This document shows, piece after piece, positions 4,393 through 63,392 of a stretch of 64,000 bases of DNA. The notes beneath the pieces are model-generated. The model saw nothing but the letters and a program-made list of their open reading frames with translations, made no database searches and was not told where the DNA came from. Position 1 is the stretch's first letter. The number at the start of each line of letters is the position of its first letter. The stretch lies in the NCBI GenBank assembly GCA_026770705.1, contig JANJGN010000025.1:18228001-18292000 (forward strand), written 5' to 3'. Made by a program: the position numbers and the translations under genes. Source of the DNA: Isurus oxyrinchus (Eukaryota).

Positions 4393-4490
4393 CTTCTGAC
4401 AACAGAATTCCCAAAATATCAATTCATCTGTTTTCTTCACAGATGCTGATTGACTTGCTGAGAGTTCCCAGCATCTGCAATATTTTTGCT
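4393..4490 (+). mobile_element. Degraded family A copy
   Basis: CACAGATGCTGATTGACTTGCTGAG...CCAGCATCTGCAATATTTTTGCT resembles the family A body and tail. Confidence 0.5.
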
Positions 4491-4628
4491 TGTTGTAAAG
4501 AAGAGAAATATACTTGAAACTGATTATATTAATAGTGGAGGTAATGTAGTAATCATGTAGATTCAAGAAAACGCAACTTGCACACTTACGTGGCTTCCGT
4601 ACAGCACACCCGACCCCTGCGTGACTTT

Positions 4629-7574: not shown

Positions 7575-9058
7575 TTTTTAAAAAAAATTAATTCATGGGA
7601 TGTGGGCTTCGCTGGCTGGGCCAACATTTTTCGCCCTTCCCTAATTACCCTCGAGAAAGTGGTGGTGAGCTGCCTTCTTGAACTGCTGCAGTCCATGTGG
7701 TATAGGTACATGCATAGTGCTGTTAGGAAGTTCCATGATTTTGACCCAACAACAATGAGGGAATGGCGATATATTTCCAAGTCAGGATGGTGAGTGACTT
7801 AGAGGGGAATTTCCAGGTGGTGGTGTTCCCATCTATCTGCTGCCCTTGTCCTTCTAGATGGTAATGGTTATGGATTTGGAAGGTGCTGTTGAAGGAGCCT
7901 TGGTGAATTCCTGCAGTGCATCTTGTAGATGGTACACACTGCTACCATTGTGCGTCAGTGGTGGAGGGAGTGAATGTTTGTGGATATGGTGCCAATCAAG
8001 TGGGCTGCTATGTCCTGCACAGTGTCAAGCTTCTTGAGTGTTGTTGGAGTTGCACTCATCAAGGCAAGTGGGCAGTATTCCATCACACTCCTGACTGTGC
8101 CTTGTAGATGATGGACAGGCTTTGGGGAGTCAGGAGGTGAGTTACTTGTTGCAGGATTCCTAGCTCTGACTTGCTATTGTAGCCACAGTATTTATATGGC
8201 TAGTCCAGTTCAGTTTTTGGTCAATGGTAATCCCCAGGAAATTGGGGGATTCAGTGATGGCAGTGCCATTGAACATCGAGGCGATGGCTGGATTCTCTCT
8301 CATTGGAGATGGTCATTGCCTGACACTTATGTGATGCAAATGTTACTTGCCACTTGTCAGCCCAAATCTGGATATTGTCCAGATCTTGCAGCATTTGGAC
8401 ATGGACTGCTTCAGTATCTGAGGAGTCACAAATGGTGAACATTGTGCAATCATCAGCGAATATCATCAGCGAATATCTCCACTTCTGACCTTATGATGGA
8501 AGGTCATTGATGAAGCAGCTGAATATGGTTGGGCCGAGGACATTACCCTGAGGAACTCCTGCAGTGATGTCCTGAAGATGAGATGACTGACCCCCAACAA
8601 CGACAACCATCTTTCCTTTGTGGTAGGTATGACTCCAACCAGCATAAAGTTTTCCCCCCCCAATTCCCATTGACTCCAGTTTTGCTAGGGCTCCTTGATG
8701 CCACACTCGGTTAAATACTGCCTTGACGTCAAAGGCAGTCAATCTCATCTTACCTTGGGATTTCAGCTCTTTTGTCCATTTGTTTGAACCAAGGCCGTAA
8801 TGAGGTCAGGAGCTGAATGGCCCTGGTGGAACCCAAACTGGGTGTCAGTGATCAGCTAATTGCTAAGCAGGTGCTGCCTGCTAGCACTGTTGATGACACC
8901 TTCCATTACTTTACTGATGACTGAGAGTACATTGATGGGGCAGTAATTGTGGTTGGATTGGATTTATCCTGCTTTTTGTGTACACGACATACCTGGGCAA
9001 TTTTCCACACAGCTGGGTAAATGTAGCTGAACTGAAACAGCTTGGCTAGGGGCGCGGC
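7575..9058 (-). mobile_element. 5'-truncated CR1-group LINE (RT C-terminal half and 3' tail), frameshifted
   Basis: ORF fragments AFNRVWHQG, GVPQGNVLGPTIFSCFINDL and FADDCT (RT motifs); same family as 31926-33297. Confidence 0.9.
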
Positions 9059-16674: not shown

Positions 16675-17109
16675 TTAAATTGGAAATTCATTGTTAGCGT
16701 GTTCGTGAGCAGTTTTTGGAGAAGGCATTTGACATACTTGAGGTGGTGCCAGCAGGTCTGAGGTAGTAGAAGAAGAACCAATCAACAGGAGTTGAGCTTC
16801 CTCTGAGGTAGACTTGATAAGAACGCTGACTGTTTCTGCTTGGACAAATGGCCCCAAGAAGGTAGGTGTAGTACATGTGACAGAAGAAAGGTGAGCCATT
16901 TCCATTTCCTCCCTAGAATCGTGCGAGTATCTGCCTGAATCGCCAGTTTCATGGCTTCCGTCACTGTTATGAGAATATTCTGTGTCTCCTGCAGTGTTGA
17001 ACACAGCCTGCAGAGATGTAGGTGGAATGTGTATTGAGCCACCCGATTCCTCACAGGTCAGCCCAGTCAGCTGGTAAGAGCTCAGGCTTCGTACATTTCT
17101 TCTCACTGG
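16675..17109 (-). CDS. PRTG: Protogenin terminal coding exon, to the TAA stop
   Basis: PVRRNVRS...DTEYSHNSDGSHETGDSGRYSHDS...NNEFPI*; contains the conserved GSHETGDSGR motif; TAGCAG tandem acceptor (start 17109 or 17112). Confidence 0.92.
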   Translation of the reverse strand, partial: PVRRNVRSLSSYQLTGLTCEESGGSIHIPPTSLQAVFNTAGDTEYSHNSDGSHETGDSGRYSHDSREEMEMAHLSSVTCTTPTFLGPFVQAETVSVLIKSTSEEAQLLLIGSSSTTSDLLAPPQVCQMPSPKTAHEHANNEFPI

Positions 17110-17684
17110 CTGCTAGCAAAAGAATTACACCAGTTACATTTAGCAAGTACTTCAAATTCCAGCCAACTTCTTTCACATAGTAGACAATGTAAACTGTTAA
17201 GAGGATCTTTGATATAAACATTATTATGTGTAGGTAATCTGTACAATTGGCTGTATTATGAATCTAAGTAATTGCAATAGAAAACATAATTCTTTAGAGG
17301 GAAAGATCATAGCAATGCAGGTGGTGCAAGCTTGATAAGAGGGATACCATGAAGCATTTTTCAAACAAGTAGATGATAATTGTTGTGTATGGCACAGAGA
17401 AGACTAACATGCTCAAATGCAGGCAGCTAGTATTGAACTAAATTTTATATACATCTCCCCAGCAGAGAAGGAAATGTAACAAAATGCTCAGATTTATTGT
17501 ACTATATAATTATATTAATTATAATTAAAGGAATAAATGCTTCAACCAGTGTTTGCACTCCACATGAGCCTCCATCCACTCTATCAGCCTCACCTTGTAT
17601 TCCTTTCTCTGTCATGTGTCTATCTAGCTACCCCTTAAAAGCATCAATTTACATTTGCTTCAAGAGTTTGGTTCCAAATCTTAC

Positions 17685-18790: not shown

Positions 18791-19083
18791 GGAGGCGGTG
18801 GCATAGTGGTATTGTCAGTGGACTAGTATTCCAGAGACCCAGGGTAATGCTTTGGGGCCCTGGGTTCAAATCCCACCACTGGAGAAGGTGAAATTTGAAT
18901 TTAATAAAACATCTGGTCTGATGATGTCATAAAAACCCATTCTGGTTCACTAATGCCCTTTAGGGAAGGAAATCTGCCATCCTTACCTGGTCTGGCCTAC
19001 ATGTGACTTTTCTGGTTGACTCTTAACTGCCCTCTGAACAAGGGCAATGAGGAATGGGCAATAAATGCCCAGCAATGCCCATG
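18791..19083 (+). mobile_element. tRNA-derived SINE with a LINE-like 3' tail
   Basis: A box TGGCATAGTGG (18799) and B box GGTTCAAATCC (18863); tail GGGCAAT..GGGCAATAAATG shared with the 7575 LINE. Confidence 0.8.
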
Positions 19084-20116: not shown

Positions 20117-20467
20117 CTGGACAAACAAAAGGTCACCATGAAAAATTAACTTGGCAATCATGTGATATCTAATAATATCTGTTGATATGTATTCAATGCT
20201 GAATATAGTGACTTTAATCCCCGATTTAATTGAAAATGGGTGAACTGAGGTGAGTACAGCTTATTACAGAAGAGGACAATTCCTAAAATAAAATACTGGT
20301 TGAAGACTGAAGGGGGTCGAGTATTTTCAGCAGGAGGCTAACATTTTGATTAACAGAATATTTTCCTTCACAATTACATTAAATACATTTACAATAAATT
20401 CTAATATAATTATTGCTCTTTTAACAATGCTATTTTGCCCTAAATAGTTGTACTTTCAAAACGATAC

Positions 20468-20591
20468 CTTGCTTTGCTTCGGTAGAGGAGGATAAGGATG
20501 CAGATGATAATACAAGTTAGGGCTATGCAAACTCCGACAATAATTCCAGTCATTGACTTTTGGTCCAGGTGGTAAAATACATCTGAGTTAG
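20468..20591 (-). CDS. PRTG: Protogenin transmembrane exon
   Basis: [41 protein letters not shown](R): hydrophobic helix followed by a basic stop-transfer segment; donor GTatcg. Acceptor ambiguous (exon start 20591 or 20582, both in frame). Confidence 0.9.
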
Positions 20592-21443
20592 CTTCAGTAA
20601 AAACAGATTGATAACAGACATTGGAACAATTAAATAAGAAGTGCCTCAAAAGGTTTTCAGTCACAGTTGTCATTGGATCATACAATTCTACTACTGATTT
20701 CAATGAAAAATTTAAAATGGGATCAGACAGATGTGACAATCTATTTCATATTATTGAAAATGTGAACATCAGTATTGTTATTGATAAATACAAAGCAATT
20801 AAACAAACTGTTAAATCTTTATAAAAATTGCCTTTTACATATGTAAATAGTAATAGATAATTTTCATAAAAGGCTTCTGTCAGCAGCAACAATCCATGTA
20901 GCACATCTGGACAGAAATGTATTATTTTGTTTAAATTCATGGATAAAGACAATATGCAGTAGGATGTTTGTAGAAGCAAAGAACACAGGATTTATACGTT
21001 TTAGAGTATTGTCACCAGGTTTTTCTCTAGCTTTTACCAACACTATGTCCCAGTCAGTTTCCATTCAGATAATTCCAATATGTTGCTTTATTTCCCATCC
21101 CTATTAATGTGCAATCACATGATATGATAGAGCTATCAAAATCAGTTGCTCCGATAAAGACTTCTGCACAGGCAGCAAAAAATATTACAATTGAAACTAT
21201 TGCACATCTAAAAGCTCTATCATAGTCACAATAATTAAACATAATTGTTAATTTCCAGTGGGATAATGTTAAAAGCATCTTCTGTTTTTAAATTGTCCAG
21301 TTTAGATTCTTTGTATCTCATACTAACAGCATTTCACTGACAAGTATGCCCATTGAGTCTACTTTTAAAGAGATCTTGTCAGAAAGGCCTAAGAGATTAC
21401 ATTAGTTACACAATTGCCTAATGGCAGCTGACTGTTTACTGAC

Positions 21444-25480: not shown

Positions 25481-25713
25481 AAAAGTAAAATACTGTAGGT
25501 ACTGGAAACCTGAAATGAAACAGAAAATGACAGAAATACTCAGCAGGTCAGGCAGCAACTGTGGAGAAAGAGAAAGGGAGTTAACGTTTTGGATCAGATA
25601 GAACTGAGTTCTGAAGAAAATTCATCGGATCATTGATCTGAAACATGAACTGTTTCTCTGCTCCCCAAAAGCTGCCATTTCTGCTGAGAATTTGCAGCAG
25701 AATTTTGTTTTTG
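25481..25713 (-). mobile_element. Family A palindromic insertion (older, diverged)
   Basis: Same CAGCAGGTCAGGCAGCA..GTGGAGA arm in both orientations; CTGAAGA at 25611 and GAAAC at 25640. Confidence 0.7.
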
Positions 25714-27175: not shown

Positions 27176-27689
27176 CTAAAGTTTGAAAGCACAGTTGGTT
27201 TATTAAAGACTTCTGTACACTCCCATTTTGGGTCATCAAGTATTTGTATTGTCAAGCATCTGCTTGCTTAGACGCTCTGTCCTGTTGTCATAGATTAGAA
27301 GAATATCTGCTGCTCAGCATCATTTAGCCTGCAGAATAATTTTTAGTAATTCATATACAAATCTGGAAAGTATAAAAGCCATAAGCTAAAAAAGTATAAC
27401 TTCTGTGGGAAAAAAAAAGCGATTTCAGATGTCATGCCCTTTCATGGATGATCTAAACATGGTCTATAACAGGGGAAAAAACATCAATAACATAAGGAAA
27501 GTTACAAAAACTCAATGGTCCTGAAGTTCAGTGTCCTTCCATATTTAACATGTGCTATTTTCTGCTTTTTGAGAGTCAAACTTTCCTCTGCTCTCAACTA
27601 TATCTCAAACTGAAAATATCATAGAATGTAAGCATAATAGAAAACGGGCCTTTCACTAAACACCCGGAAAACTAAGGTCCTTAAAATCT

Positions 27690-28010: not shown

Positions 28011-28147
28011 CAGTTCAACTGCCTATTTTTCTCAAATTCATTCATATTCACTGCACTATTTATTAGGCACATCAGTTGCAATTCGCTTTCAACAAACATA
28101 ATATTGAGACCCAGTGATGCATCCTGAATAAGCATTTGAATCCATAT

Positions 28148-29610
28148 GTGCCCCACCGAGTGTGCCTGACTTGAGAAGAAAATGGGGTAAAATTGGTGGG
28201 CAGAAAAGAGAGATAATCTTAATTTATTGTCAAGCTAATTGGGAGTTATAAACTAATTTAAGCTTTAAGTTTCATAGGACAGCTGTATTTAAAAAATCCA
28301 TAACACTTGCTAATTAAATAAATTTGAATTCTGGTGAAAAATTCATCTAAATACTTCAACTTAAAAAAAAATTCATGCAAAAGCAGAGTGTGCATACAAC
28401 ATAGCTATTTGCACATAAGAAGTATTCTAATTACAAGTCATGTTGCCATTTTAAGCTGGCAGGTATGAATGAGCATTCAAATCAGCACTAGTGTCTCTTC
28501 TATCACTGCTGGTTTAGCATGAGAGAATCTATAGCAGTAAAGGTGTAATTTTGGGTTCCAGTCTGTTAATTCCAAGGAAAACGTTATTGGGCATTGCTGC
28601 AAATAACTTTTTTCAAACATAATATACTTTCAAGGAGTCTCCTGAATTATGAAGAAAACTAGCTTGAACATTCATGCAAAAAAAGTCAAACTTTGCCGTT
28701 AGCAACAAACAATCACATTAAATAAACTAGGAAATTATCTTTAGCATCTGCGTACTTGAGCATTTTTCTCACTATTAAACTAAAACATTGTTCTTAAAAG
28801 TATGAAGTAAATAAAAAATAAAAGTATGGGTAACTAGCTCATGGATCTGCCTACAAAACAACTTATCTACAAGGGACCCCTGCTACTTGTTGAATGCCAG
28901 AAGATGGCCCCACTAACCATTTATCATACTGTCAAATGGCTTAAAAATGTCTGCTGGCCTCCCGAGTGGTCATCCAGAACCGGTCACTGTTCCATTAAAT
29001 GGAGACAAGTGAAGGTCTAATGTCAACACAGAATTGCCCTTCCTCAGAGAGAGATACTGCTCACAGCAATAGTTTACACAATGCATCTTAACACATGAGG
29101 CCTCTCTTTGTAAATGCAACCAATCCATCATTCCACAGCTCCATAAAGTTTAAGATTTTCTTATCCACAATTGCGAAGCACTGGTATTTATCATTCTGAT
29201 GACCTTTACACACTATAGTGGGGGTATTTATAGAAACTGAAGCCTACACAACATCCACTTTGAATACAAATTTCTTTAGAAAATACAAAATGGGTAAGGA
29301 ATCAGTTTATTAACAAGCTGTAACTGAAATACAGCGAGCAACCATCAAGCAGAGCTATCTGAAACAAAAAAGAAACACATGGTCCCCTCAAAGAAACTTC
29401 AAGGCTGCTTAATGAATTCAAATTTATTTAATTAGCAAGTGTAATGGATTTTTTAAATACAGCTGTCCTATGAAACTTAAAGCTTAAAATAGTTTATAAA
29501 TCCCAATTGGCTCGACAACAAATTAAGATTTTCTCTCTTTTCTGCCCACCCCACCCCCAAACCAATTTTATCTCATTTTCTTCTCAAGTCAGGCACACTC
29601 GGTGGGGCAC
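28148..29610. repeat. Inverted duplication: arms 28148-28331 and 29414-29610
   Basis: Directly alignable reverse complements over ~185 bp with few differences. Confidence 0.9.
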
Positions 29611-29885
29611 AGGCCCATCAGTGTCAGCAGCCTTCTGGCACCTCAGCAAAGTGAGACTCGAGGATAAATGTCAATAGGGTACTTGATCATGAGAATATCC
29701 ATGCCGGAGCACTTTCCAGCAGAGGTCACTAGATAGCAATCAGGAGCACGAACCTAGCTGATATTTCTCCTCCTTAGCCAGAGGCACTGAGGATAATTGT
29801 AGCACCACCCCAGTACCACGCTTACTAAGATAAGCTAACCAGAGCACAGTCCATATGGGTCAGTAACACCACAAACCACTGGGTG
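29580..29885 (-). mobile_element. Old SINE-like repeat; related copies at ~10065-10410 (+), ~49490-49850 (-) and ~60530-60720 (-)
   Basis: Shared GGTCACTAGATAGCAATCAGGAGC...GGCACTGAGG..AATTGTAGCA...TAAGCTAAC..AGCACAG block; family not identified. Confidence 0.5.
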
Positions 29886-31100: not shown

Positions 31101-31240
31101 AAATAAAAACAGAAGAGTCATACAGACTCGAAACATTAACTCTAATTCTCTCTCCGCAGAAGCTGTCAGACCTGCTGAGTTTTTCCAGCATTTTCTATTT
31201 TTATTTCAGATTTCCAGTATCCGCAGTATGTTACTTTTAT
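31101..31240 (+). mobile_element. Family A insertion (single arm)
   Basis: GAAGAGTCATACAGACTCGAAACATTAACTC...CCTGCTGAGTTTTTCCAGCATTTTC, matching the 40094 copy. Confidence 0.75.
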
Positions 31241-31925: not shown

Positions 31926-33297
31926 TTTCTTTTATTCATTCCTGGGATGTGGGCTTCGCTGGTTGGGCCAGCATTTATTGCCCATCCCTAGTTGCCCTTG
32001 AGAAGGTGGCGAACGTTGAACCGCTGCATTCAATGCGGTGTAGGTACACCCACAGTGCTGTTAGGGAGGGAATTCCAGGATTTTGACCCAGCGACAGTGA
32101 AGGAACAGCAATATAGTTCCAAGTCAGGATGGTGTGTGGCTTGGAGGGGAACTTCCAGGCAGTGGTGTTCCCATCTATCTGCTGCCCTTGTCCTTCTATA
32201 TGGTAGTGGTCGTGGGTTTGAAAGATGCTGCCGAAGGAGACTTGGTGAATTCCTGCAATGCATCTTGAAGATGGTATGCACTGCTGCTACTGTGCATTGG
32301 ACGTGGAGGGAGTGAATGTTTGTGGACATGGTGCCAATCAAGTGGGCTGCTTTGTCCTGCACGGTGTCAAGCTTCTTGAGTGTTGTGGGAGCTGCACTCG
32401 TCCAGGCAAGTGGGGAGTATTCCATCACACTCCTAACTTGTGCCTTGTAGATGGTGGACATGCTTTGGGGAACCAGGAGCAGGTGAGTTACTCAACGCAG
32501 GATTCCTAGCCTCTGATGTGCTCTTGTAGCCGCAGTATTAATATGGCTAGTCCAGTTTAGTTTCTGGTCAACGGTAACCCCCAAGATCTTGATAGTGGGG
32601 GATTCAGTGATGATAATGTCACTGAAGGAGGCATGGTTAGATTCCCTCTTGGTGGAGATGGTCATTGCAATGCATATGTGTGGTGAAAATGTTACTTGCC
32701 ACTCGTCAGTCCAAGTCTGAATATTGTCCAGGTCTTGCTGCATTTGGACATGGACTGATCACTATCTGAGGAGTTGCGAATGTCACTGAACAAAATCATC
32801 AGCGAACATCCCCACTTCTGATCTTATGATGGAAGGAAGATGGTTGGGCTGCAGCCACTACCCTAAGGAACTCCTGCAGTGATGTCCTGGAGCTGAGATG
32901 ACTGACCTCCAACAACTACAGTCTTTGTGCTAGGTATGACTCTAACCAGTGGAGAGTTCTCCCCGATTCCCATTGACTCCAGTTTTGCTGGGGCTCCTTG
33001 ATGCCACATTTGGTCAAATGCTACCTTGATGTCAAGGGCAATCACTCTCAGCTCACCTCAGGAGTTCAGCTCTTTTGTCCAGGTTTGAACCAAGGCTGTA
33101 ATGAGGTCAGGAGCTGAGGGGCCCTGGTGGAACCCAAACTGGGTGTCAGGTGAGGTTATTGCTAAGCAAGTGCCACTTGATAGCACTGTTGATGACCCCT
33201 TCCATTACTTTACTGATAATCGAGTGTAGACTGTTGGGGCAGTAATTGGCTGGGTTGGATTTGTCCTGCTTTTTGTGTGAAGGTCATACCCAGGCAA
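31926..33297 (-). mobile_element. 5'-truncated CR1-group LINE, same family as 7575-9058
   Basis: ALDIKVAFDQMWHQG, QQDLDNIQTW, YKAQVRSVMEYSPLAW; colinear with the 7575 copy. Confidence 0.9.
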
Positions 33298-35640: not shown

Positions 35641-36939
35641 TATTAATGAGAGGGGCACGATTTTATATGAGAAAAATATCTATCCCATTGCTTTAAAAGA
35701 AACAAAACCTTGTGTAAAAATTAAAACATTATCCATTTGTTGTCAAGTAGAAAAAGTTGGAATTTATTGAAAATAATCAAGTCAATAGATGGCAAGAATC
35801 AACTTTGCAAGTTTCAATGTGGTTCTTTTATAATTCTCAATTGGATACAGGGAAATAATCAACAAGCCCGAACTGTGACCCAGTAGCTTCTAGCATTATC
35901 CTTCAGCACCTTGGTGCATACCCAACAATCAGGACAAGATCTGCCCAGGCCTATTTTTGGGATTGCCAGTTGTTACACTGTACCCAAATGGGAATTAAAG
36001 AAACACACAAAGACATGCAAAGCTCAGTGCTTCATGTCCACTTTTGGGTTACTTCTCCCCCATTTTCACATCTAAACTAGCCCCACACCCTCGGCAACCA
36101 CTCCAATACTCCCTCTTATTTAGAGAAGTGTCTTGGTCACTGCTCTTAGCACCATCCCAGGTTTAGATGAGAAGTTTATATTGGTCCCCACTAAGTCAAT
36201 GGATAAAGCTGCTGTGTAAATGGGGCATGCAGGAATCTTCGCCTGTGTAGAATAAGTTGATCTCAGCTCGATAAGATGGAAATGCTACACTGCACTTCAG
36301 TTTCCAAAGGGCAAAAAAAAATCTTGCATTTCTAAAGCACCGTTAGGAATAATCCAAGGCTGAATCACAGGATTTGTTGCATGATTGCAATTTATAGTTT
36401 AAAAAAAAAATCTTCCTTAGTATGTTAGGTTTTTGAAAAAGATTAAAATTTTCACATGGTATACTTTTTTTTTCAACTGCACTATCAGCAAGGTTTCTAT
36501 GAAATGTCTACTGGTGTGAAAACATGGTATATATTGCTGGTGTGGTCATTTAAGACCTTTCAATGGCCTATGGCAACATTTTGCTGCACTGTCTTCAATA
36601 CTCCACAGTGACACAGCGCATGGTTTGTGGCACCAGTCTGCCAGATTAGAAGGCTACAGCCACACTTTAAAAAAAAAATTAGGAAAAATTCAGTTTTAAG
36701 CTCTCCCACAGGTCCAGTAGGTAAAGATATCACCAAATCTTATCCCAAGCAACAGAGACCCAAAAGCCTCATGTTTGATTTCAGCCACAGTGCAAGTTGC
36801 AATGCTACAATTGTGCCAACGCCCCTCAGTTAGGTGAGCGCAGTTGGGAGGGTATGGGGGAGGTGAGCATAAATTAGTCAGAGCTCCCATTATTGATCAC
36901 CATCCAACGACTTGTGTCTAACAGTTTAGGTTTTTTAGT

Positions 36940-37084
36940 TCTAGTTCTGTCGAAGGGTCATGAGGACTCGAAACGTCAACTCTTTTCTTCTCCGCCGATG
37001 CTGCCAGACCTGCTGAGTTTTTCCAGGTAATTCTGTTTTTGTTTTGGATTTCCAGCATCCGCAGTTTTGTTTTGTCTTTATATA
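36940..37084 (+). mobile_element. Family A insertion with a 15-bp TSD and a near-complete hammerhead motif
   Basis: TTTAGGTTTTTTAGT at 36925-36939 and 37085-37099; AGTT-CTGTCGA-A-GGGTC ATGAG GACTC-GAAAC-GTC-AACT at 36943-36981. Confidence 0.8.
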
Positions 37085-40000
37085 TTTAGGTTTTTTAGTG
37101 TTGGATAGGAACAGGATTGACCTCCACAGCCTGTCATACCTCACTATTCATGCTACCAAATGGAAGGATGGTTAATATTGGATGGCAAAGCCTTGCTGGC
37201 ACCCATAGAGCTGGATCTCAGCAAGGCTCTGGCTTGGAGAGTCAGGGCAGAAACTGGGAGAGAGAAATGGTGCAATAGCAGTGAGCATAGATGTTCTTCA
37301 CACGCAGTGACCCATGCAGATTAAATATATTTCTACCTATACCAAGATGTGCCCAAGCCATCAGTTGTGATTTTTCCGTCTTCCCTTTTAACCCATTGGT
37401 TTCCCCAGAAGTAGTTGTACTGCAATCACACAAGAAACAATTAGCAGGAGCAGTATTCCAGTACCTCGTCCAAGGGCTTATCATGCAGCATATACCTCAA
37501 CAGAGTATACTGTTGGGATCCATCACAGTAAAGCCCCATCGTCCGATGTCCACATACATTTTTCAGCAGTGGTCAATCAGAAGCAGGAACTCTGATTGAC
37601 TTTCCCTAACTCTCAGACACTGAAGCCAGCTAGTCTGTTCATCATGAAAGAACTGGAATGGTGTGAACAGGAGTCTCAAGTTGTTATACAAATAAAAACA
37701 GCGTACTTCAACTTTTCACTTTTGGCATTAGCAAAGCATCACACTGCAGAGTCTTGTGGATTGGTAACCTTAATTATTCATTTAAAAAGTTACACCAACA
37801 TGTCAGCCAAGCATTTTGGGCTACTTGCCAAATGCATCATTGCCAGCAAATGTTTGCTGACCATTCATTACCAATGACAAGCTGTAAATAGCTTTGCTTC
37901 AAAAAGGCAATTCCCTCATCGGTTCGAAATATTTGCGAATCTTAAAAGTCTTTCAAAAAAAAGGCTAGCAGGTCACCAGTAAGGGGGAAAAAACTAAGAT
38001 AAATCTGGGGTTAGAACCGTGGAGAAGTGGTTTTCTGAAGGGTCATTCCACCCACAGAAACCTTAATTTTGTGGTGATAAAGACAAAGACAAACCCCTGA
38101 AAAACCAGACCTCAGTTCTAAAAAGGTCCCCTCTGGGAGCAAGCAACAGATAAGGGCTGGCTAGACAAGACAAAAACAGTGTGCCTGTGCAGAAAATTTA
38201 CAGCTCTGTTTTTTTAAAAAGCTCTGATTACTTAATACAAGATGGGGTTTATCAGAGCAAGGCATGCAAAATGTTTGTCTGCTATCCAGGCTAAAGTTTT
38301 GACCTCAAGCAAAAAGTGGCTGCCTTTGCTGCTGTCCAGTACCTGGTGAGCTCACAGTATAATGTCCTGTAATAGTCCAGTGGGCTAGCCTGCTGGGGTG
38401 AATACAGTGCCCCAAGCCCATTCTTAGAACACAATAAAGCTGCAGCAATTATGCAGGAAAGAATCCAACCATGTTAGATGGTGACATCTGGGCCATGCCC
38501 TTTGACACGCTCAGAATCTGCCTTGACTAAAGTCTGCTTTTGAAGCAATGAGAGACTGAAGTCTGGGGGACTGCAAAGGGAGAAGTGACACAACAAAGCC
38601 AAAAGTAAGCTGTATGATATTACAGAAACCTCCTGAAAGGCTAGTTTTTCTACCCATAGCAGCTAGACAAAAGATATTGCTGCATTTAATATATGCAATC
38701 AGTGCAAGTATATCTAGGTTCTATCAGTGCAAGTAACAACCTAACCACTAATAAAAAGCTATTAAAACAATTCCCATATTTTGCAGCACAGTAAACATTC
38801 ACAGCACACTGGGATATATTTACACCATAGCAGGCCACATTCCATTCACATTTAGGTGATTCAAACTAAGTACAGCTATTTATCTGACTTTTACTGCTGT
38901 CTTCAATTCGTTATAAAATGATCAGGTTGACATGTACTGTATTTACATTGGGCATTCAAACGAGATAGGGGTGTTGCATAGTGAGCTGAATACAATTCTC
39001 TGATGGCAGTAAGTGGCAGCAGAAGTCAAAGTTGGGAGCTTATACCTCAAATCAAATTTGGAACAAATAATTCCTCTCCCTCTACATCAAATCATTTACT
39101 GTGGATCAAGAAAGTCAAATTTGCAATTGTAGAGCAAACCAGGTTTGAGAGATTTAATTGCTGCTCCCGTTGTAAATCCTTCCACTTCTTCATGGTCACC
39201 TGATGTTTATGATTTATTTGTGTAATCCTGCCGATCTCAAGCCTTTGTTCTGCCCCCTTTGAAGACCTTCGGGTCAAACACTCCCTCACTCCTCCACCCC
39301 ACCCCCATCTCCAATATAAATGGTTCTTTTTCTACTGGGCAGTGTTATTTGGAGGTGAAAAATCTTAATCAAGATAGTACCAAAAAAGGGTAAAAGAACA
39401 ATTAAGGGTGGTCTAGAAATTCCAGAATAATTTGCAACATTATAAGCAACTCATCCAGTACAGAGTTATTGAGATCCAGCTGATATTTCAATAACTAACA
39501 TAAACCATTGTAAATAGCAGTGTTAAGATACTGGGAAAGGGAGATGATATCTGTTTTGCCCAAAATATGCCCTCAGGCCTAGAAATACATTCTCTTCTAG
39601 AATCAGCACGGCTCTATTAGTTTCCATGGGTTAACTACCATTGTGACCTTGTAATAGAATGAAAACTTATATTTATCAAACTGGTTAAATTAAGACAACA
39701 ACCTTGTGCTTGATACAAAGAACAGAACTATTTCAACATAACTACACAACTTCGTTGGCTGCAGTAACCTTCTTGTCAACAATACTTTTGCCTCCCCACA
39801 GCTGTGACCTGCTCTGTAGTTCAGTGCTGCAATGATTTAACAGTACAAAGGGGTTTGTAGTTTTACTTTTAACAAACTGTTGAATGGAAATGTGTTTTTC
39901 ACTTAATGTAGTTTATGCACAATCACCTAACTGAGAAGGGATGAAAGTTATATCAAATGAACAAATCTCAAACATTCAACCTGAAGAAGTTCGTCTTTTT

Positions 40001-40093
40001 AATGTTGACTTTTAATATTTCCTTTTAATTAAAGTTAATTTAGACTTAACTAGTTCTCAGTGTCCTCTCAAGTAACTACATGAGTAAAACAGT

Positions 40094-40303
40094 AATAAAA
40101 ACAGAAAATGCTGGAAAAACCTCAGCAGGTCTGGCAGCACCTGTGGAGAGAGAAAGAGAGTTAATGTTGAGTCCGTATGAAGAGTCATATGGACTCGAAA
40201 CATTAACTGTTTTTCTCTCCACAGATGCTGCCAGACTTGCTGAGTTTTTCCAGCATTTTCTGTTTTTGTTTCAGATTTCCAGCATCCGCAGTATTTTGCT
40301 TTT
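40094..40303 (+). mobile_element. Short palindromic retro-insertion (family A, Penelope-like end) with a 14-bp TSD
   Basis: ATGAGTAAAACAGT at 40080-40093 and 40304-40317; ~85-bp inverted arms; partial hammerhead GAGTC-ATATG-GACTC-GAAAC. Confidence 0.8.
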
Positions 40304-41938
40304 ATGAGTAAAACAGTCTTTTATCCTTTGGTGATACAGTAGGGAGTTGGGCCTAATCCAAATACAGTTCAAATGAGCCAAGAGCCATTACCAACATTGG
40401 TGAAAGCAAACCATTTCTCTTGACATGCTGCAGGTATCTTCAATCTCTAATGTTCAGAGGTGACTTGTCTTCATCTGTTTTACCAGCAGCAGAAGGGATG
40501 GAAAGCATTGTTCATATTTTCTGAGGCCTATGCATGCACACTTGCCAATCTGTGTTTGGATTTGGCTTTGCAGGTAAACTGAATTAAGGGGGTGTTATTG
40601 GCGGGGCACATTTCTCCCCCATCCCAATTCATTGCTTTATATTTTCCAAACTAAAGATTGTGTATTTTTTATATATTCGTGAATTTTGGATAACTGGTAA
40701 TTCTACATTGTTCAGCTTACGGATTTCAAAATGAACAAGGTGTAAAAACTCTTGCAAAGAGTTTCAAAGCTGCTCATCAAGGCTACTTGAATGTTACACA
40801 ATTGAGGGATTTATGTAACTTGGAAACTACAGATGGTGTTTTTTTTTAAATGTTTTAAAAAAACAATTTGATAACATTCTTCTACTATTTAAACACACGT
40901 GTATAGAATTTGCACAAATCATGATGGACGAAAGATTACCCTTTGAAGACTATGGCGCTGTGGAACAGCAATTGGTCTATGGCTCAAACATTTCCCCATC
41001 TTGACACTTTTGAGAAGGCAACAGAGGGCACTTTTCTGTCTTTTTAATACAATGGAAGGAAAATGATACAGGAGATTTATCAAAATATTCTGACCATAAT
41101 TCTCCCTGGCATATCCTGGCTGTTCAATTTACTGGACCGAAAAATATTTAATGTATATAAAGCAGCAGCAGACATTCATACAATCGGCCCGGAAAGATTA
41201 TTTCAGATCTCTATTAGAGTAAGTCAAACTAACATAGCAAAGCTGCTTTACTGCAAGGTCAATTTCATTTAGCACATAAGAGTGATATTTTTGAAAGGGG
41301 TCAGTCAGATAAAAGAAAACACATGACCAGTGTTTCCAAACTCTCCCATACGAGTTAGATGCTTCCTTAAATTTAAAAATAGATATTAGAATTATCAATA
41401 GGAAATTTTATGTCAACATCTTCCTCTGAGGTTTTTTGAACTTGGGGCGAGAGGTCTCAACAAGCATGTGTAAGATTTCTATAGCAAGCTCCAATAATTA
41501 CAGAATGTGAAGTCTTCAAATAGCAAACAAGGAATTTCATATCTCACCACTAAAAATAAACAAAGTCATTCCAAAAACTAATATCTGTGTTCATACCATA
41601 GTCCAAAGCAGACACTTCTAATGATCTCGGGTCAATGTGAGGATGGAAATTGCAATTGAGGAAATTGCCCTTGATTTGGAATCCTGGATATGATCTGTGC
41701 TGAATGCTACCTACGCCCAAATAGACCACTGAATCTGAAAAGCTAAACTTTGCCATTAACATCACATTCCAATTTTTTACATTAGTGGCTAATGCAGCTT
41801 TAGTGTCCTTTATGTCATCATAACAATCCGAAGCACTTCACAGCCAATAAGATCCTTTTGGGGTGTAGTCACTCGTGTTACGGGGGCCAACACAGCAGCC
41901 AACTTATGAACAGCAAGATCCCACAAACAACAAATGAG

Positions 41939-42060
41939 CTCTGATGAAGTCATACGGATTTGAAACGGTCTTTCTCTCCACTGATGCTGTTATACCTGCT
42001 GAATTTTTCTAGCATTTTGTTTTTGTTTTAGATTTCCAACATCAGCAGTATTTTGCTTTT
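41939..42060 (+). mobile_element. Family A insertion nested inside a Deu-domain SINE
   Basis: CTGATGA AGTCATACGGATTT GAAAC at 41941-41966, then the family A body; the flanks continue a SacSINE1-like sequence. Confidence 0.65.
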
Positions 42061-42436
42061 AAATAAGGTTAATGACTAATTTACAGAAAATGCAGGTCAG
42101 GCAGGATATGAGGAGAACTGTATGCTTTTTGAATAGTGCCATGGAGTTTTTTTTTACATCCACCTGAGCAGTGAGGTAGGCCTTTGTTCAACATTTCATC
42201 ACAGGAAAGCTACATAAACTTCATGCACTGTAATTACACCCTCTTGCCAGTGGTGGCAGTTTAGTGCCTCAATTTTGCATATTCCAGCCGTTTCCAAAAA
42301 AACGCTACACTACAAGTAACTTCCTGACCCGTTTTTTTCTAATCCTTTAAAATATCTCTTTTTTTGGCGGTGGTGGTAGTGGTGGGGAGTGAGGGGAACC
42401 AGTTATCAAAGCTCAACTCAATCCAAGATATTTGAA

Positions 42437-42643
42437 TAAAAGCAAAATGCTGCAGATGCTGGAAATCTGAAACAAATACAGAAAATGCTGGAAAAACTCA
42501 GCAGGTCTAGCAGCATCTGTGGAGAGAGAAACAGAGTTAACGTTTCAAGCCCATATGACCCTCCTGCAGACCCTCTGAAGAAGGGTCATAATGGGCTCGA
42601 AACATTAACTCCGTTTCTCTCTCCACAGATGCTGCTAGACCTG
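42437..42643 (-). mobile_element. Family A palindromic insertion with a degenerate 14-bp TSD
   Basis: CCAAGATATTTGAA (42423-42436) vs CCAAGACATTTAAA (42644-42657); inverted arms; CTGAAGA...GAAAC on the plus strand from 42575. Confidence 0.75.
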
Positions 42644-42990
42644 CCAAGACATTTAAAGTTGAAGGTTTACTATAATAACTTTGGTAAATTCGAATTGCAG
42701 CCCCTTCACATGACCCTCTTTCCATCACCTGGCAGTAATGTGAAGTCACTTGCAGAGAAAGTTATGAACCTAATTTTTTTTTTTAGGTCCATACAAAATG
42801 TTGCTTTGATAATGGGGTGTGTGGATAATGGAGATTCTCCATTTTTATTGATAAGGGTTGGAGACTGATAAATCATTGGTTAAAATTTGAGGTGACTGTT
42901 GAGATCTGTAGACTGTGAACACAATTGCATAAATATCCCTCCTTCAAAGGAGGAAGCTATTTCAATATTGGGTAGAGGGCTAGGGCAATG

Positions 42991-51602: not shown

Positions 51603-51770
51603 GCTTCAACAAAAAGTCTTTTTTTTCAGCAATACTCAAGTTCTGTACTCCCAAACAGCAATTCATAAATCAGTACTCATTCGTCATTGTCTAAGTGTCA
51701 TGCTGAGGGGTGCAGGTAACCACGGTCTTCTAAGCCCTCCAACCATTCCAGTTCAGGGTAGCATTAATAT
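51603..51770 (+). repeat. Direct duplicate of 53463-53654
   Basis: GCTTCAACAAAAAGTC...CAGCAATACTCAAGTT...GTCTAAGTGTCATGCTGAG...CCAACCATTCCA present at both sites. Confidence 0.85.
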
Positions 51771-52823: not shown

Positions 52824-53523
52824 AGTATTGCTGAAAAATACTTTTTTGTTGAAGCTTCGTCTTGCACTCATTAGGACAATTCGCAAGGAAATACCAATGT
52901 CAGGGGAATCAACATACTGTATGGGAAGAGAATGCTGATTGTTTGGCAAGCAGACTTGGATTGGTAGAGGCATTGCCATAGACAATGCACCTGTGGATGG
53001 TGACTGACCATTAACTGCCAAGCATCATTTGAAATTTAAACCAGGCTTCTGGACTCTGATTAGTCAAGGCATTGCCCTGAGGAATGAATCAGTGAATGAC
53101 TGTCCCTTACTTTGTTTAGCTGAAACAGGTGCAATATGTGTACGTGATCTTTCTGCCTGCAAAGAACAGGGCCCATATACATAATATACATACACTGCGC
53201 CTGTTTCAACTAAACAAAATAAATGATAGCCATTTGCTGGTTCATTCCTCAGGGCAATGCCTTGGCCAGAGTCAAACTGACTGGTTTAAATTTCGTACAA
53301 TGCTTAGCAGTTAACTGTCAGTCACCATCCACTGGTGCATTCTCCATGACAACACCTCTACCAGAATCTACTTGCCAACCAATCAGCACTCTCTTCTCAT
53401 ACAGTATAAATGTTGACATTGATATTTTCTTGTGAACTGTCCTGATGAATGCAAGATGAAAAGCTTCGACAAAAAAGTCTCTTTTTTTCAGCAATTCTCA
53501 AGTTTTGTATCCCCAAATGACTA
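52824..53523. mobile_element. Large palindromic element with a hammerhead motif in each arm (probably inverted Penelope-like pLTRs)
   Basis: Arms about 52824-53140 and 53190-53498 are reverse complements; hammerhead motifs at 52846-52879 (minus, degraded) and 53438-53471 (plus). Confidence 0.7.
53438..53471 (+). ncRNA. Minimal type I hammerhead ribozyme motif (predicted cleavage after C53467)
   Basis: TGTC-CTGATGA-AT GCAAG AT-GAAA-AGCT-TC-GACA: complete catalytic core, stem I TGTC/GACA, 2-bp stem II, palindromic AGCT stem III. Confidence 0.7.
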
Positions 53524-56500
53524 TTCATAAATCAGTATCCATTCGTTGTTGTCTAAGTGCCATGCTGAGTGGCGTAGGCAACTACGGTCTTCTGAATTTT
53601 CCAACCATTCCAATACTCATGACTGAGCTGAATTAATCCTCTCCAGTTCAGGGTGGGCAATTTAACAATCCACAAATCAAAGTGTCTAAACATCTAGGAC
53701 ATCATGAAGAAGTGTCCCACTTTCCTAGTGTAACACAGTTAAAGAAAATACTGTAAGACAATACTGAAAAAACAAATAAAATGCCAAAATAAAGATCTCA
53801 CTGCAGTTTTCAGTCTGCAGTACCATTTCTCGTCAGCAGGTGTTGCCTTTTTGAAACAATTAAATTATTTTAAAACGGTAAAGCTAGTTTTATAGCTCAA
53901 AAAACCAACCAATTTTTCTTTTGCTTTTGTCTTCGCTTTACAGCTATTTGCAGGTCCAATTTCATTAGCAAATTTAAATAGCTCCACTTTTTTCTGAGAT
54001 CCCAATGAATAAGTATACAAGAACTTAATGCATTCTCATTCATTTGTAATCCCACTGTGGTGAATACCGAATATTAGTGATATGCCCTTTTGCTAGTCAA
54101 GCCCGCAATTAAACCTAAAAGTATAACATCCAATTTTCTTAGTACTAATTGGCTGATTAAACTTTATTTACAAAGTGGGCCAGGGCTGCAAAAAAAAAGT
54201 TTATAAATCGTCACTGCCTGTCAGAGCAGAGACAAAACTTTATCTCAGTTCACAGGGAAGAGTTAAAATCCTGGGGTCCTAGAGGTCAAAAGGCAGTGAA
54301 TGGGACAAGTGCCTTAAGCAAACCATTCCCATCTAACCTCCAGTTGGAATTTTGTGACCAGACTGAGGAAGTAAACTTTTTTGGCATATAATAAACTGGC
54401 TTGCATGTTGAAAAGAGGCTTGTACTCAATAAACCCTCGACATCATTTACCCTCAGTAAGCCTAACAACGCAATGAATTGGTTTTTCAGAAATAAAATGC
54501 CAAAATAAAGATCAAAAACAACTTTTAATAAAGAAACAGTAAACACAGGTGCCTGGGTTCAACAACATGCTTTCAAATTCCAGAGACTAGTTTGAGTGAA
54601 AAATGAATATAACATAAGATGATATTTCCTGAGCTGTATCTTTACAAGATAGAGGGGTGTGGAGCAAAATGATGGATTTTTTTAATACTCATTATTTGCT
54701 TTACTTTTCCATCTAATTTTTGTTTTTTATTGTTTTATTCTGAAAACTTTACACAATTAATCATATACTCTACTACAGAAGTTGAGTTATTACAGTTTAT
54801 AACTTTATTCTCCAAACAGGTTTACAAATCATGGGCAGAGCAGCTGGTCCAGCTGAACTGTAACTCTTGATTTTCCATATTTTTTTTAAGATTAGGCAAT
54901 TTTTAATCTTATGGTATAAAGGAATACTGTTTGAGCTTCGACAGATATCTACAAGTGTTTTTTTAAATCCACATAATACTGAATCAGAAAAGCCTAACCA
55001 TTAACTAGGGGAAGAATTGGACCCAGAAGGCAGAGCTTGTACAAAATGAGTGTCTGTCTCTGTAAAATTACATTTACTTTGGTTTGTAATGATCGATCTA
55101 ATTTGTCTCTTTAACATAGCCAAAATAGCTACTTCAGGAAAGATAAATAACATACAAAACACTGGAATAGGAACAGAATCCAATCAATGATCAGGTTTTG
55201 TTCTACTCTCCTGGGTCATTGTTCTGGACAGTTTTTTGCCTGGTTAAATGGTCAGCTGCCAGCCACCTGCTATGGCTGGAATGGCCACAGATGGTCAGTT
55301 GTCCAGTTAGTAGTTAAGAATGTGCTGTTGTTCCCACATCACACGGGGATTGAGGCCCTTGACAGGGATCAGTGAATCTAAGCTCATCACCTGGCAACAG
55401 TCAAGGGCCACAGCCAAACAGTGACTGAGGTCAGACTTAATAATTCTGCAATAACTTACATTTATAGATCATTCAAACCAAGAATTTAAAATGTAATAAC
55501 ATTCAGATATTATTGTTTCTTTTCTTTGCTGAAGGATCACATTTTAAATGCTGATTATATTATTTAAGTAATAAGAATAGCAGCTCCAATAATATGCTAA
55601 AAATATTCAAAACTCTTACATTTGAAAGCACTGAACAAAACTACAAAATCTTTCTCAAGCTTATAAATAGACAAAGATTGGTATTGAACATATTCTTAAT
55701 TGTAGCCGAACATCCATTAGTAAGTGTGTACTCATGTAAACTAGAAGTGGTCTAGTGCTTACCTCCATCACATCAAGTCTGGAACTTTACAGTGGCCTGT
55801 GAAACATTTTACTGCAAGTGCACAGAAACCAACTTAAACCTTTACTGCAATCCAGTTCTGCACAAGCTGGAACAAACCTTGGCTCTGATTTAGCACAATT
55901 TGATAAAAGCTCGTAATGGTTCTGCAGAAACCAGATTTCAGATCATTTCAGGTGGTCTGGAAGCAAAAATGCAGAACAACTGTGCTGACGGATTGTGTTG
56001 ACAGAGAAGGTTGTGTAAATAATTCACAACACACAAAAAAAATCTCTTGAGGAAGGGCTGATGGTAAATGATACAATGTGATACAAAAGCCTTTTTTCTA
56101 AGTCACGCTATTTTCGTACCACTAAATTAAGAAAAATAATTTTAAATTATTTCTGCAGCAACACTAAAACAGAGATGTAATGGAGCATTAACAGGAAGGT
56201 ATAAGTGTTCAACAGTGGTATTTGCAGATGAAGGGAGAACACTTCTGCAGTTTGTACAGTGACAAGTTATTGTCCCAGACAGAAGAACAAACAGATAATA
56301 TCCTGATTCAAATCCTCCCACTTTTAATGGAACCAAGGGAGGAAAGGAATTAAATATACTGTTCAAATTCATTAGCAAATCCAATTACACTTATGCTGAA
56401 AAGCAGGTACAGCATTCAAAAGTTTGAACAATGATACAGTAGCAGCAGTCACTTCACCATGTGAGTAAATGCTTTTAAGTTTGTTTACACCTTCACAACA

Positions 56501-62975: not shown

Positions 62976-63392
62976 GGGGAGGTGGTGCTGCAGTGGTAAT
63001 ATCACTGGACTGGTAATGCAGCGGCCTAGGCTAATGCTTTGGGTGCTCAGATTCAAATTTAAATTTAATTAATAAATCTGGAATTAAAAGCTACTCTCAG
63101 TAATGGTGGCCATGAAACCATTGCCGATTGTTGCAAAGACCCATCTGTTTCCCCTTTAGGGAAGGAAATCTGTCATCCTTACCTGGCCTGGCCTACGTGC
63201 AACCGCATAGCAACGTGGTTGACTCTTAAATGCTCCCTGAAATGGCTTAGCAAGCCACTCAGTTGTATCAAACCACTATGAATGATGGGCTGCAGTGGCT
63301 CACCACCACCGCCTCAAGAGCAAGTAGGGGTGGGCAATAAATGCTGATTTAGACAGGAGCATTCATATCCCATGAAAAGAAATTTAAAAAAT
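62976..63392 (+). mobile_element. tRNA-derived SINE, same family as 18791
   Basis: Shared CCTTTAGGGAAGGAAATCTG..ATCCTTACCTGG core and 3' tail. Confidence 0.8.

Follow-up and report, generated by a model that had tools for sequence, protein, structure and literature searches.

Short hammerhead-bearing repeats in a 64-kb shark sequence as probable ends of a Penelope-like element

A family of short repeats in 64,000 nucleotides of the shark Isurus oxyrinchus (contig JANJGN010000025.1, positions 18,228,001 to 18,292,000, forward strand; here called the window) very probably consists of 5'-truncated terminal ends, or pseudo-long terminal repeats (pLTRs), of an endonuclease-bearing (EN+) Penelope-like element (PLE), inserted by target-primed reverse transcription (TPRT) from RNA that its hammerhead motif had left uncut. 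The repeats are real insertions with target site duplications (TSDs), and TPRT by a PLE is the likely way in which they arose. We hold strongly that the repeat works like a PLE end, in a sense that does not imply membership of a named PLE family. A sequence-only reading of the same DNA had already favored retro-insertion over a miniature inverted-repeat transposable element (MITE), with a Penelope partner as the likely engine, and the tail, the inverted arms, the TSDs, and an empty site in a relative all agree with that view. Seven loci in the window share one body, as that reading had claimed. They were found by BLAST with the 145-bp insert at 36940-37084 (E values of 1e-29 to 1e-3), which matched nine further arms, and a profile search of the window recovered ten arms at the seven loci at E values of 1e-18 or better, the profile having been built from the same arms, so that they match it by construction. 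The copy to which attention had been drawn is a single arm with the following parts:

36925..36939, plus strand: left TSD, a perfect 15-bp repeat match, present as a single copy in the relative's empty site
36940..37084, plus strand: single-arm insertion of 145 bp, bounded by the TSDs, a member of the young subfamily (16,657 of 87,211 reads are 99% or more alike)
36943..36981, plus strand: minimal type I hammerhead motif, by layout, read variation, and the definition in PMC4209133 (cleavage predicted)
37045..37084, plus strand: PLE "tail," an optional 3' extension past a short 3' end at about 37041-37045, from read depth, loose ends, and arm ends
37085..37099, plus strand: right TSD, a perfect 15-bp repeat

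How the repeats entered the genome can be read from their borders. Perfect TSDs bound two copies, one of 15 bp (36925-36939/37085-37099) and one of 14 bp (40080-40093/40304-40317), and a third copy has a degenerate TSD in which 12 of 14 positions match (42423-42436/42644-42657). A perfect repeat longer than 10 bp was found at none of 2000 random loci (the longest was 10 bp), and the score of the degenerate TSD was reached by 1.8% of 3000 random pairs; thus, both the coordinates and the controls bear out the three TSDs named earlier. No TSD above chance was found at the other four loci, and a degenerate TSD at 31101, plausible by eye, was rejected when its score fell at the 49% level of random loci. 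Moreover, one contig of 1961 nt, from one run of a close relative, matched 36780-36927 and then 37088-37240 at adjacent positions of its record. The contig skips 160 nt, equal to the insert (145) plus one TSD copy (15), and keeps a single copy of the target site. Thus, the duplication was made at insertion, as had been proposed. We conclude that the 36940 insertion postdates the split from the relative or is polymorphic.

The most diagnostic feature of the family, and one that the earlier description omitted, is the tail. The 3' ends of the window copies fall at two positions 33 to 41 nt apart. Part of 36700-37300 is contained in 20 of 24 listed sequencing runs, and four runs were aligned to 36780-37240 at 80% likeness. 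In the relative, 87,211 of 12,736,993 raw reads fell on the insert and none fell on its unique flanks. Read depth dropped from 55,292 at 37040 to 37,157 at 37046, a step of about one-third at 37041-37045; the 5,331 loose ends behind 37045 agreed at only 0.37, like random flank, and the remaining reads continued to the second end. Exactly one arm is tailed in all four two-arm copies (40094, 42437, 25481, and 31101, the last with a mini-arm), an arrangement with a chance of about 0.04 given that two thirds of arms are tailed, and the single arms at 36940 and 41936 are tailed as well. In the 42437 copy, the short arm stops earlier than the untailed 3' end. PLE insertions are described as combining an inverted 5'-truncated copy with a tail of 30 to 40 bp at one end (PMC8557442, PMC3846280), and a repeat of 34 to 37 bp is reported in Penelope (PMC2377424); here and below, papers are cited for the portions of their text available to us.

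Inversion is the second feature that points to a PLE. A 5'-truncated, inverted neighboring arm occurs at four of the seven loci, and opposite-strand joints are many in the reads. The other copies are as follows:

40080..40317, both strands: two-arm insertion, with an untailed inverted arm at 40094-40181 (minus) and a tailed arm at 40178-40303 (plus)
42423..42657, both strands: two-arm insertion, with a tailed arm at 42437-42570 (minus), a 3-nt spacer, and a short arm at 42574-42643 (plus)
31112..31240 (locus 31101..31240), plus strand: tailed arm that starts inside the core, with an inverted mini-arm of the untailed 3' end at 31101-31115
25481..25713, both strands: older two-arm copy without a TSD, with a tailed arm at 25481-25598 (minus) and an untailed arm at 25605-25713 (plus)
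41936..42063, plus strand: single tailed arm that starts at stem I, with a CUGAUGA core and no TSD above chance
4407..4496, plus strand: decayed arm without a recognizable hammerhead, with a deletion between two internal CCAGCAT repeats

The arms of the 40094 copy are 94% identical over 84 nt and join with a 4-nt overlap in the core and stem II, and those of the older 25481 copy are 75% identical. In the 42437 copy, two private letter changes are common to both arms and absent from other arms, which would point to one donor for both, or else to later conversion. The 31101 copy is not single-armed, being preceded by the short inverted arm listed above. Across the window, inversion centers lie in or just before the hammerhead and show 3- to 4-nt overlaps or a 3-nt spacer. 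A possible eleventh, deleted arm lies at 42084-42130 (minus strand), tail-to-tail with the 41936 copy, where the profile gave a weak match (42092-42116, E value of 0.18).

How a PLE might generate such copies can be outlined. A PLE protein made elsewhere would bind RNA holding the terminal module and nick AT-rich DNA on both strands, 14 to 15 bp apart. Synthesis of cDNA would begin at a distal or a proximal site, two reverse transcriptase (RT) start sites inside the RNA, by analogy with Anolis Poseidon, in which the tail corresponds to the stretch from one internal RT start to the other and both target strands are cut and extended (PMC11167929). Synthesis would usually run into or through the hammerhead with the cut site ignored, as the copies and reads show, and in Anolis Poseidon the main substrate is likewise uncleaved RNA (PMC11167929). 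A second, head-to-head arm would be made in the same event, with the second nick as primer or through the first cDNA folding back, and closure would proceed by microhomology. Fold-back explains the 40094, 42437, and 31101 copies but not the 25481 copy, whereas all four can be derived from synthesis on two RNAs primed at both nicks.

The template may have been the RNA of a full-length PLE or, with about even odds, a short non-autonomous pLTR transcript. The latter would be a dedicated element, a solo pLTR transcript of about 150 to 200 nt that starts a little upstream of stem I and is mobilized in trans, and we give it slightly less than an even chance. None of the ten arms is as long as 150 nt or extends into coding sequence, and in the young subfamily the reading frame opened by the ATG at 36998 is closed after 10 codons. 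At 36951, read depth still stands at 27,672, or 64% of the 43,263 at 36974. Moreover, a promoter lies within the pLTR of Penelope (PMC2377424) and pLTRs are reported to act in trans (PMC3846280). Strong 5' truncation, however, is normal for PLEs (PMC8557442), and the reads reveal no real 5' boundary. Before 36943, 13,195 reads run on with an agreement of 0.68, as against 0.37 for random flank and 0.67 to 0.69 for known shared family ends; thus, many copies extend upstream of stem I. The window contains no copy of the upstream letters of the loose ends (1 match versus 1.7 expected), and the opposite-strand joints at 36943 (153 plus 84 reads) do not prove a 5' boundary, because the reference copy itself ends there. 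The letters shared upstream of 36943, seen in the reads of two runs, also duplicate the 3' strand of stem II, and with the 5' strand of stem I they make a short hairpin, a possible alternative fold in which the hammerhead would be masked.

The hammerhead departs from the canonical form. In the 36940 copy, stem I has 4 bp (36943-36946/36978-36981), the core occupies 36947-36953 with a U at position 6 (36950), and an extra A follows A9 at 36954. Stem II has 5 bp (36955-36959/36965-36969), is closed by a G-C pair, and is followed by GAAA; stem III is a palindromic ACGU without a loop (15.1 to 16.1 at 36973-36976); and a GUC triplet places the predicted cut after 36977. Thus, the type I layout, the 4-bp stem I, the extra A, and the loopless, dimer-type stem III of the original description stand, and its CUGANGA core does not, as the core of the flagged copy reads CUGUCGA. 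CUGANGA, proposed as the family consensus, is found in only three of the ten arms (25605, 41936, and 42574), and in each of these stem I, stem II, or the cleavage triplet is disrupted; in the 41936 copy, a deletion removed the cut site and the 3' half of stem I. Four other arms break off within the core or within stem II, one has two core changes, and one, the copy reported at 4393, lacks the motif, so that no arm is a fully canonical hammerhead (CUGANGA...GAAA with NUH). Stem II is 82% paired across the window arms, with pairing peaking at slide 0, in an alignment of which some rows contain junction sequence. Within 36943-36981, the read differences listed at a frequency of at least 8% all fall at N7 (C/U, 45%), two loop II letters, N17 (C/U), a stem II change from G-U to A-U, or the stem III CpG. 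Minimal hammerhead ribozymes (min-HHRs) of PLEs are predicted to need dimers and to cleave weakly, and most of them are dispersed one by one or lie 100 to 700 bp from each other on opposite strands (PMC4209133).

Self-cleavage might have set the 5' end of the mobilized RNA, as a retrozyme-like monomer or circle, and the ribozyme had been suggested to help define the mobilized unit. The hammerhead layout is conserved, type I hammerheads process tandem retrozymes and have been proposed to act on PLE RNA (PMC4209133; bioRxiv 10.64898/2026.07.22.740005), and an intact core could still be present in a circular template. When 5' ends were placed relative to the predicted cut, however, none of the ten arms started at 36978, and most kept the core that cleavage would remove. 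Depth was smooth across the cut (43,263 at 36974, 44,295 at 36977, and 45,409 at 36982), no pile-up of read beginnings or ends was seen there among the ends listed, and tandem arrays were absent at all seven copies. Moreover, the young subfamily carries U6, and at that position A6C strongly lowers activity in other hammerheads (PMC7151607, PMC3088659), A6U itself not appearing in the portions of those papers at hand. Together with the shared letters upstream of stem I, these results make cleavage very unlikely to be what delimits the unit. A weaker form of the idea fits the window copies, in that 5' ends and inversion centers cluster within the hammerhead fold or slightly upstream of it.

How widely the family has spread can be estimated from the relative. 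Peak depth over 1887 million letters corresponds to about 39 arms per Mb at 80% likeness, which, if older copies are taken into account, fits the ten arms of the 64-kb window. Because so many aligned reads (16,657) are 99% or more alike to the 36940 copy, we place that copy in a young subfamily. Among the rows listed, the 27,672 reads at 36951 had no alternative letter at a frequency of at least 8% at 36947-36950 or 36952-36955, and thus U6 is the letter of the subfamily. The U6 subfamily amounts to roughly 14 arms per Mb, a figure that is not its share of the whole family because reads of older subfamilies are partly clipped at the core. In another hammerhead, A6C lowers activity with Mg2+ by about five orders of magnitude at 0.3 mM (PMC7151607). 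It is possible, if on balance doubtful, that a young non-autonomous PLE subfamily spread with a U6 core that would be expected to impair cleavage severely, yet retained both stems and the palindromic stem III, so that the fold would serve as a structural part and not as a nuclease. On the same uncertain footing, and jointly with that reading, we speculate that the fold may be an RT stop or fold-back site, or an RNA-RNA pairing site that joins two templates in a dimeric PLE complex and so gives two-armed insertions inside one TSD. The only run of RNA contigs gave one contig, another of the aligned runs is probably DNA, and neither says anything about expression. A small share of the sequence words also occurs in two metatranscriptome runs (labeled coral metagenome and metagenome), which is no evidence of habitat.

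Other classes of element fare worse. A short interspersed element (SINE) or the 3' fragment of a long interspersed element (LINE) would share long TSDs and 5' truncation, as non-LTR elements do, and we consider either origin highly improbable. LINEs are not known to show two fixed 3' ends or inverted arms that overlap fully. The copies do not match the LINE remnants of the window and have no A-rich or simple-repeat end. Their description as lacking a tRNA head, a poly(A) tail, and an open reading frame (ORF) was upheld, with no tRNA gene in the window, no A-box match in the copies (7SL and 5S heads being covered only through Rfam), no poly(A) end, and no ORF at any of the seven loci. A MITE or fold-back DNA transposon with a chance likeness to a hammerhead is less credible still, for although four of the seven loci are palindromic, three consist of a single arm, including one whose perfect 15-bp TSD and empty site contradict a MITE, the arms are unequal with centers that differ from copy to copy and ends that do not match terminal inverted repeats, and the TSDs found are 14 to 15 bp of unrelated sequence rather than the fixed short duplications of DNA transposons.

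Several results weigh against a PLE origin or against parts of it. TSDs were found at only three of the seven loci and all are 14 to 15 bp, so that they bear little on the variable length once ascribed to them. The untailed arm of the 25481 copy reaches further 5' than the tailed arm, which simple fold-back cannot yield. The hammerhead is not the minimum-energy fold of the monomer, its stems having probabilities of about 0.01 to 0.03 in the 145-nt RNA; stem I is only 53% paired across arms; two-sided covariation counts did not exceed those of shuffles (45/500 and 26/500); and Rfam at its gathering score gave no match in the window. Moreover, neither a PLE RT nor a GIY-YIG domain was found among the 149 window frames of at least 70 amino acids (aa). 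No long protein was found for two frames of the element, the third having a stop: one frame gave 0 of 21 candidates, and the other gave three matches of 71 to 152 aa, which are read as translations of the same repeat. Finally, the 64-kb window holds no partial tandem of the direct pLTR-ORF-pLTR kind, and the true 5' end of the family lies outside what the window and the reads show. Candidates for longer copies and for a partner were also discarded. Motif scans for longer copies elsewhere gave no viral contig, and one metagenome contig and one prokaryote genome were chance matches of 22 to 23 nt. RT matches at 8254-8805 belong to a different, LINE-like repeat pair, and a splicing explanation, with a branch point over the cut site and two CAG acceptors, was dropped when both CAGs proved absent from the 36940 subfamily.

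Six of the seven loci lie between exons of a minus-strand receptor gene of the host (16678-62836), and five of the seven tailed or main arms are antisense to it. The gene has six FN3-like frames, a transmembrane exon at 20443-20745, and a cytoplasmic exon at 16678-17112, and we take it to resemble protogenin, of the DCC/neogenin family. A different hammerhead-like motif lies at about 53439-53480 (plus strand), beside a large fold-back at 52824-53381 (region 52824-53640), with a decayed relative at 51603-51750. It is probably the "first family" of the earlier reading and likely another PLE end. Two LINE-like remnants, 83 to 96% identical and unrelated to the hammerhead family, lie at 7587-9000 and 31934-33297 (minus strand), and the Pfam RT matches at 8254-8805 fall in the first. 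An element of about 1.46 kb at 28147-29611, with long terminal inverted arms that are 95% complementary, is likely a non-autonomous DNA transposon. A SINE-like repeat occurs in two copies, 18791-19068 and 62978-63344, with an A-box match at 18799, and the LINE-like ends at 8-79, 7586-7654, and 31930-32001 match it at its 3' end.

Why the family matters lies in two open questions about PLEs, the role of the hammerhead and the origin of the inverted arms and tail. From the genomic side, the repeats support what was found in vitro, namely that uncleaved RNA serves as template and that two internal sites are where copying begins. They provide short junctions in very large number, bounded by TSDs and accompanied by empty sites in a close relative, from which twin priming and fold-back could be separated by computation. 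Moreover, the naturally occurring A6U subfamily offers a ready-made control for the importance of cleavage, and the insertions are usable as presence/absence markers for phylogeny. We regard the family as a useful example rather than a new system. It is not a new kind of element, as an inverted pLTR, a tail, and a min-HHR have already been published for PLEs; what is new is the empty site, the copy density and the step at the tail obtained from reads, and a U6 core that has been widely amplified. No description of this family in sharks was found in the literature searched, a body that lies apart from Repbase, Dfam, and most subscription papers, and no shark term occurs in two of the three supplementary files of PMC4209133.

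Comparison with known systems places the repeats closest to EN+ PLEs. As in those elements (PMC3846280, PMC8557442, PMC2377424), the copies have head-to-head 5'-truncated arms, a tail of 30 to 40 bp on one end, a TSD, a palindrome or short overlap at the inversion center, solo pLTRs, and a minimal type I hammerhead in the terminal repeat. The shark family differs in having no ORF at any of the seven loci, a density of about 39 arms per Mb, and TSDs of 14 to 15 bp rather than the 8 to 10 bp of rotifer copies, and we do not assign it to the Poseidon or the Neptune clade. Non-LTR retrozymes (bioRxiv 10.64898/2026.07.22.740005) are likewise short, non-coding, derived from pLTRs, and equipped with a type I hammerhead, and they are reported in one chondrichthyan, but they are defined by direct tandem units, whereas the copies here are dispersed, single or head-to-head, and tailed. 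The min-HHRs of metazoan PLEs (PMC4209133) share the type I form, a stem I of 4 to 5 bp, an extra nucleotide that separates positions 9 and 10.1, the G10.1-C11.1 pair, a palindromic 15.2-16.2 without loop III, and thousands of dispersed single motifs. Their stem II has 7 to 8 bp rather than 5, and the portion of that paper at hand gives U3-A8 as a variant and does not mention an A6U core. Finally, Poseidon_Ac of Anolis (PMC11167929) also has two 3' ends about 100 to 140 nt downstream of the hammerhead, AT-rich targets, and an uncleaved RNA template. Its ORF, however, starts at stem II, whereas no long open frame is linked to the shark repeat and the main young subfamily carries U6.

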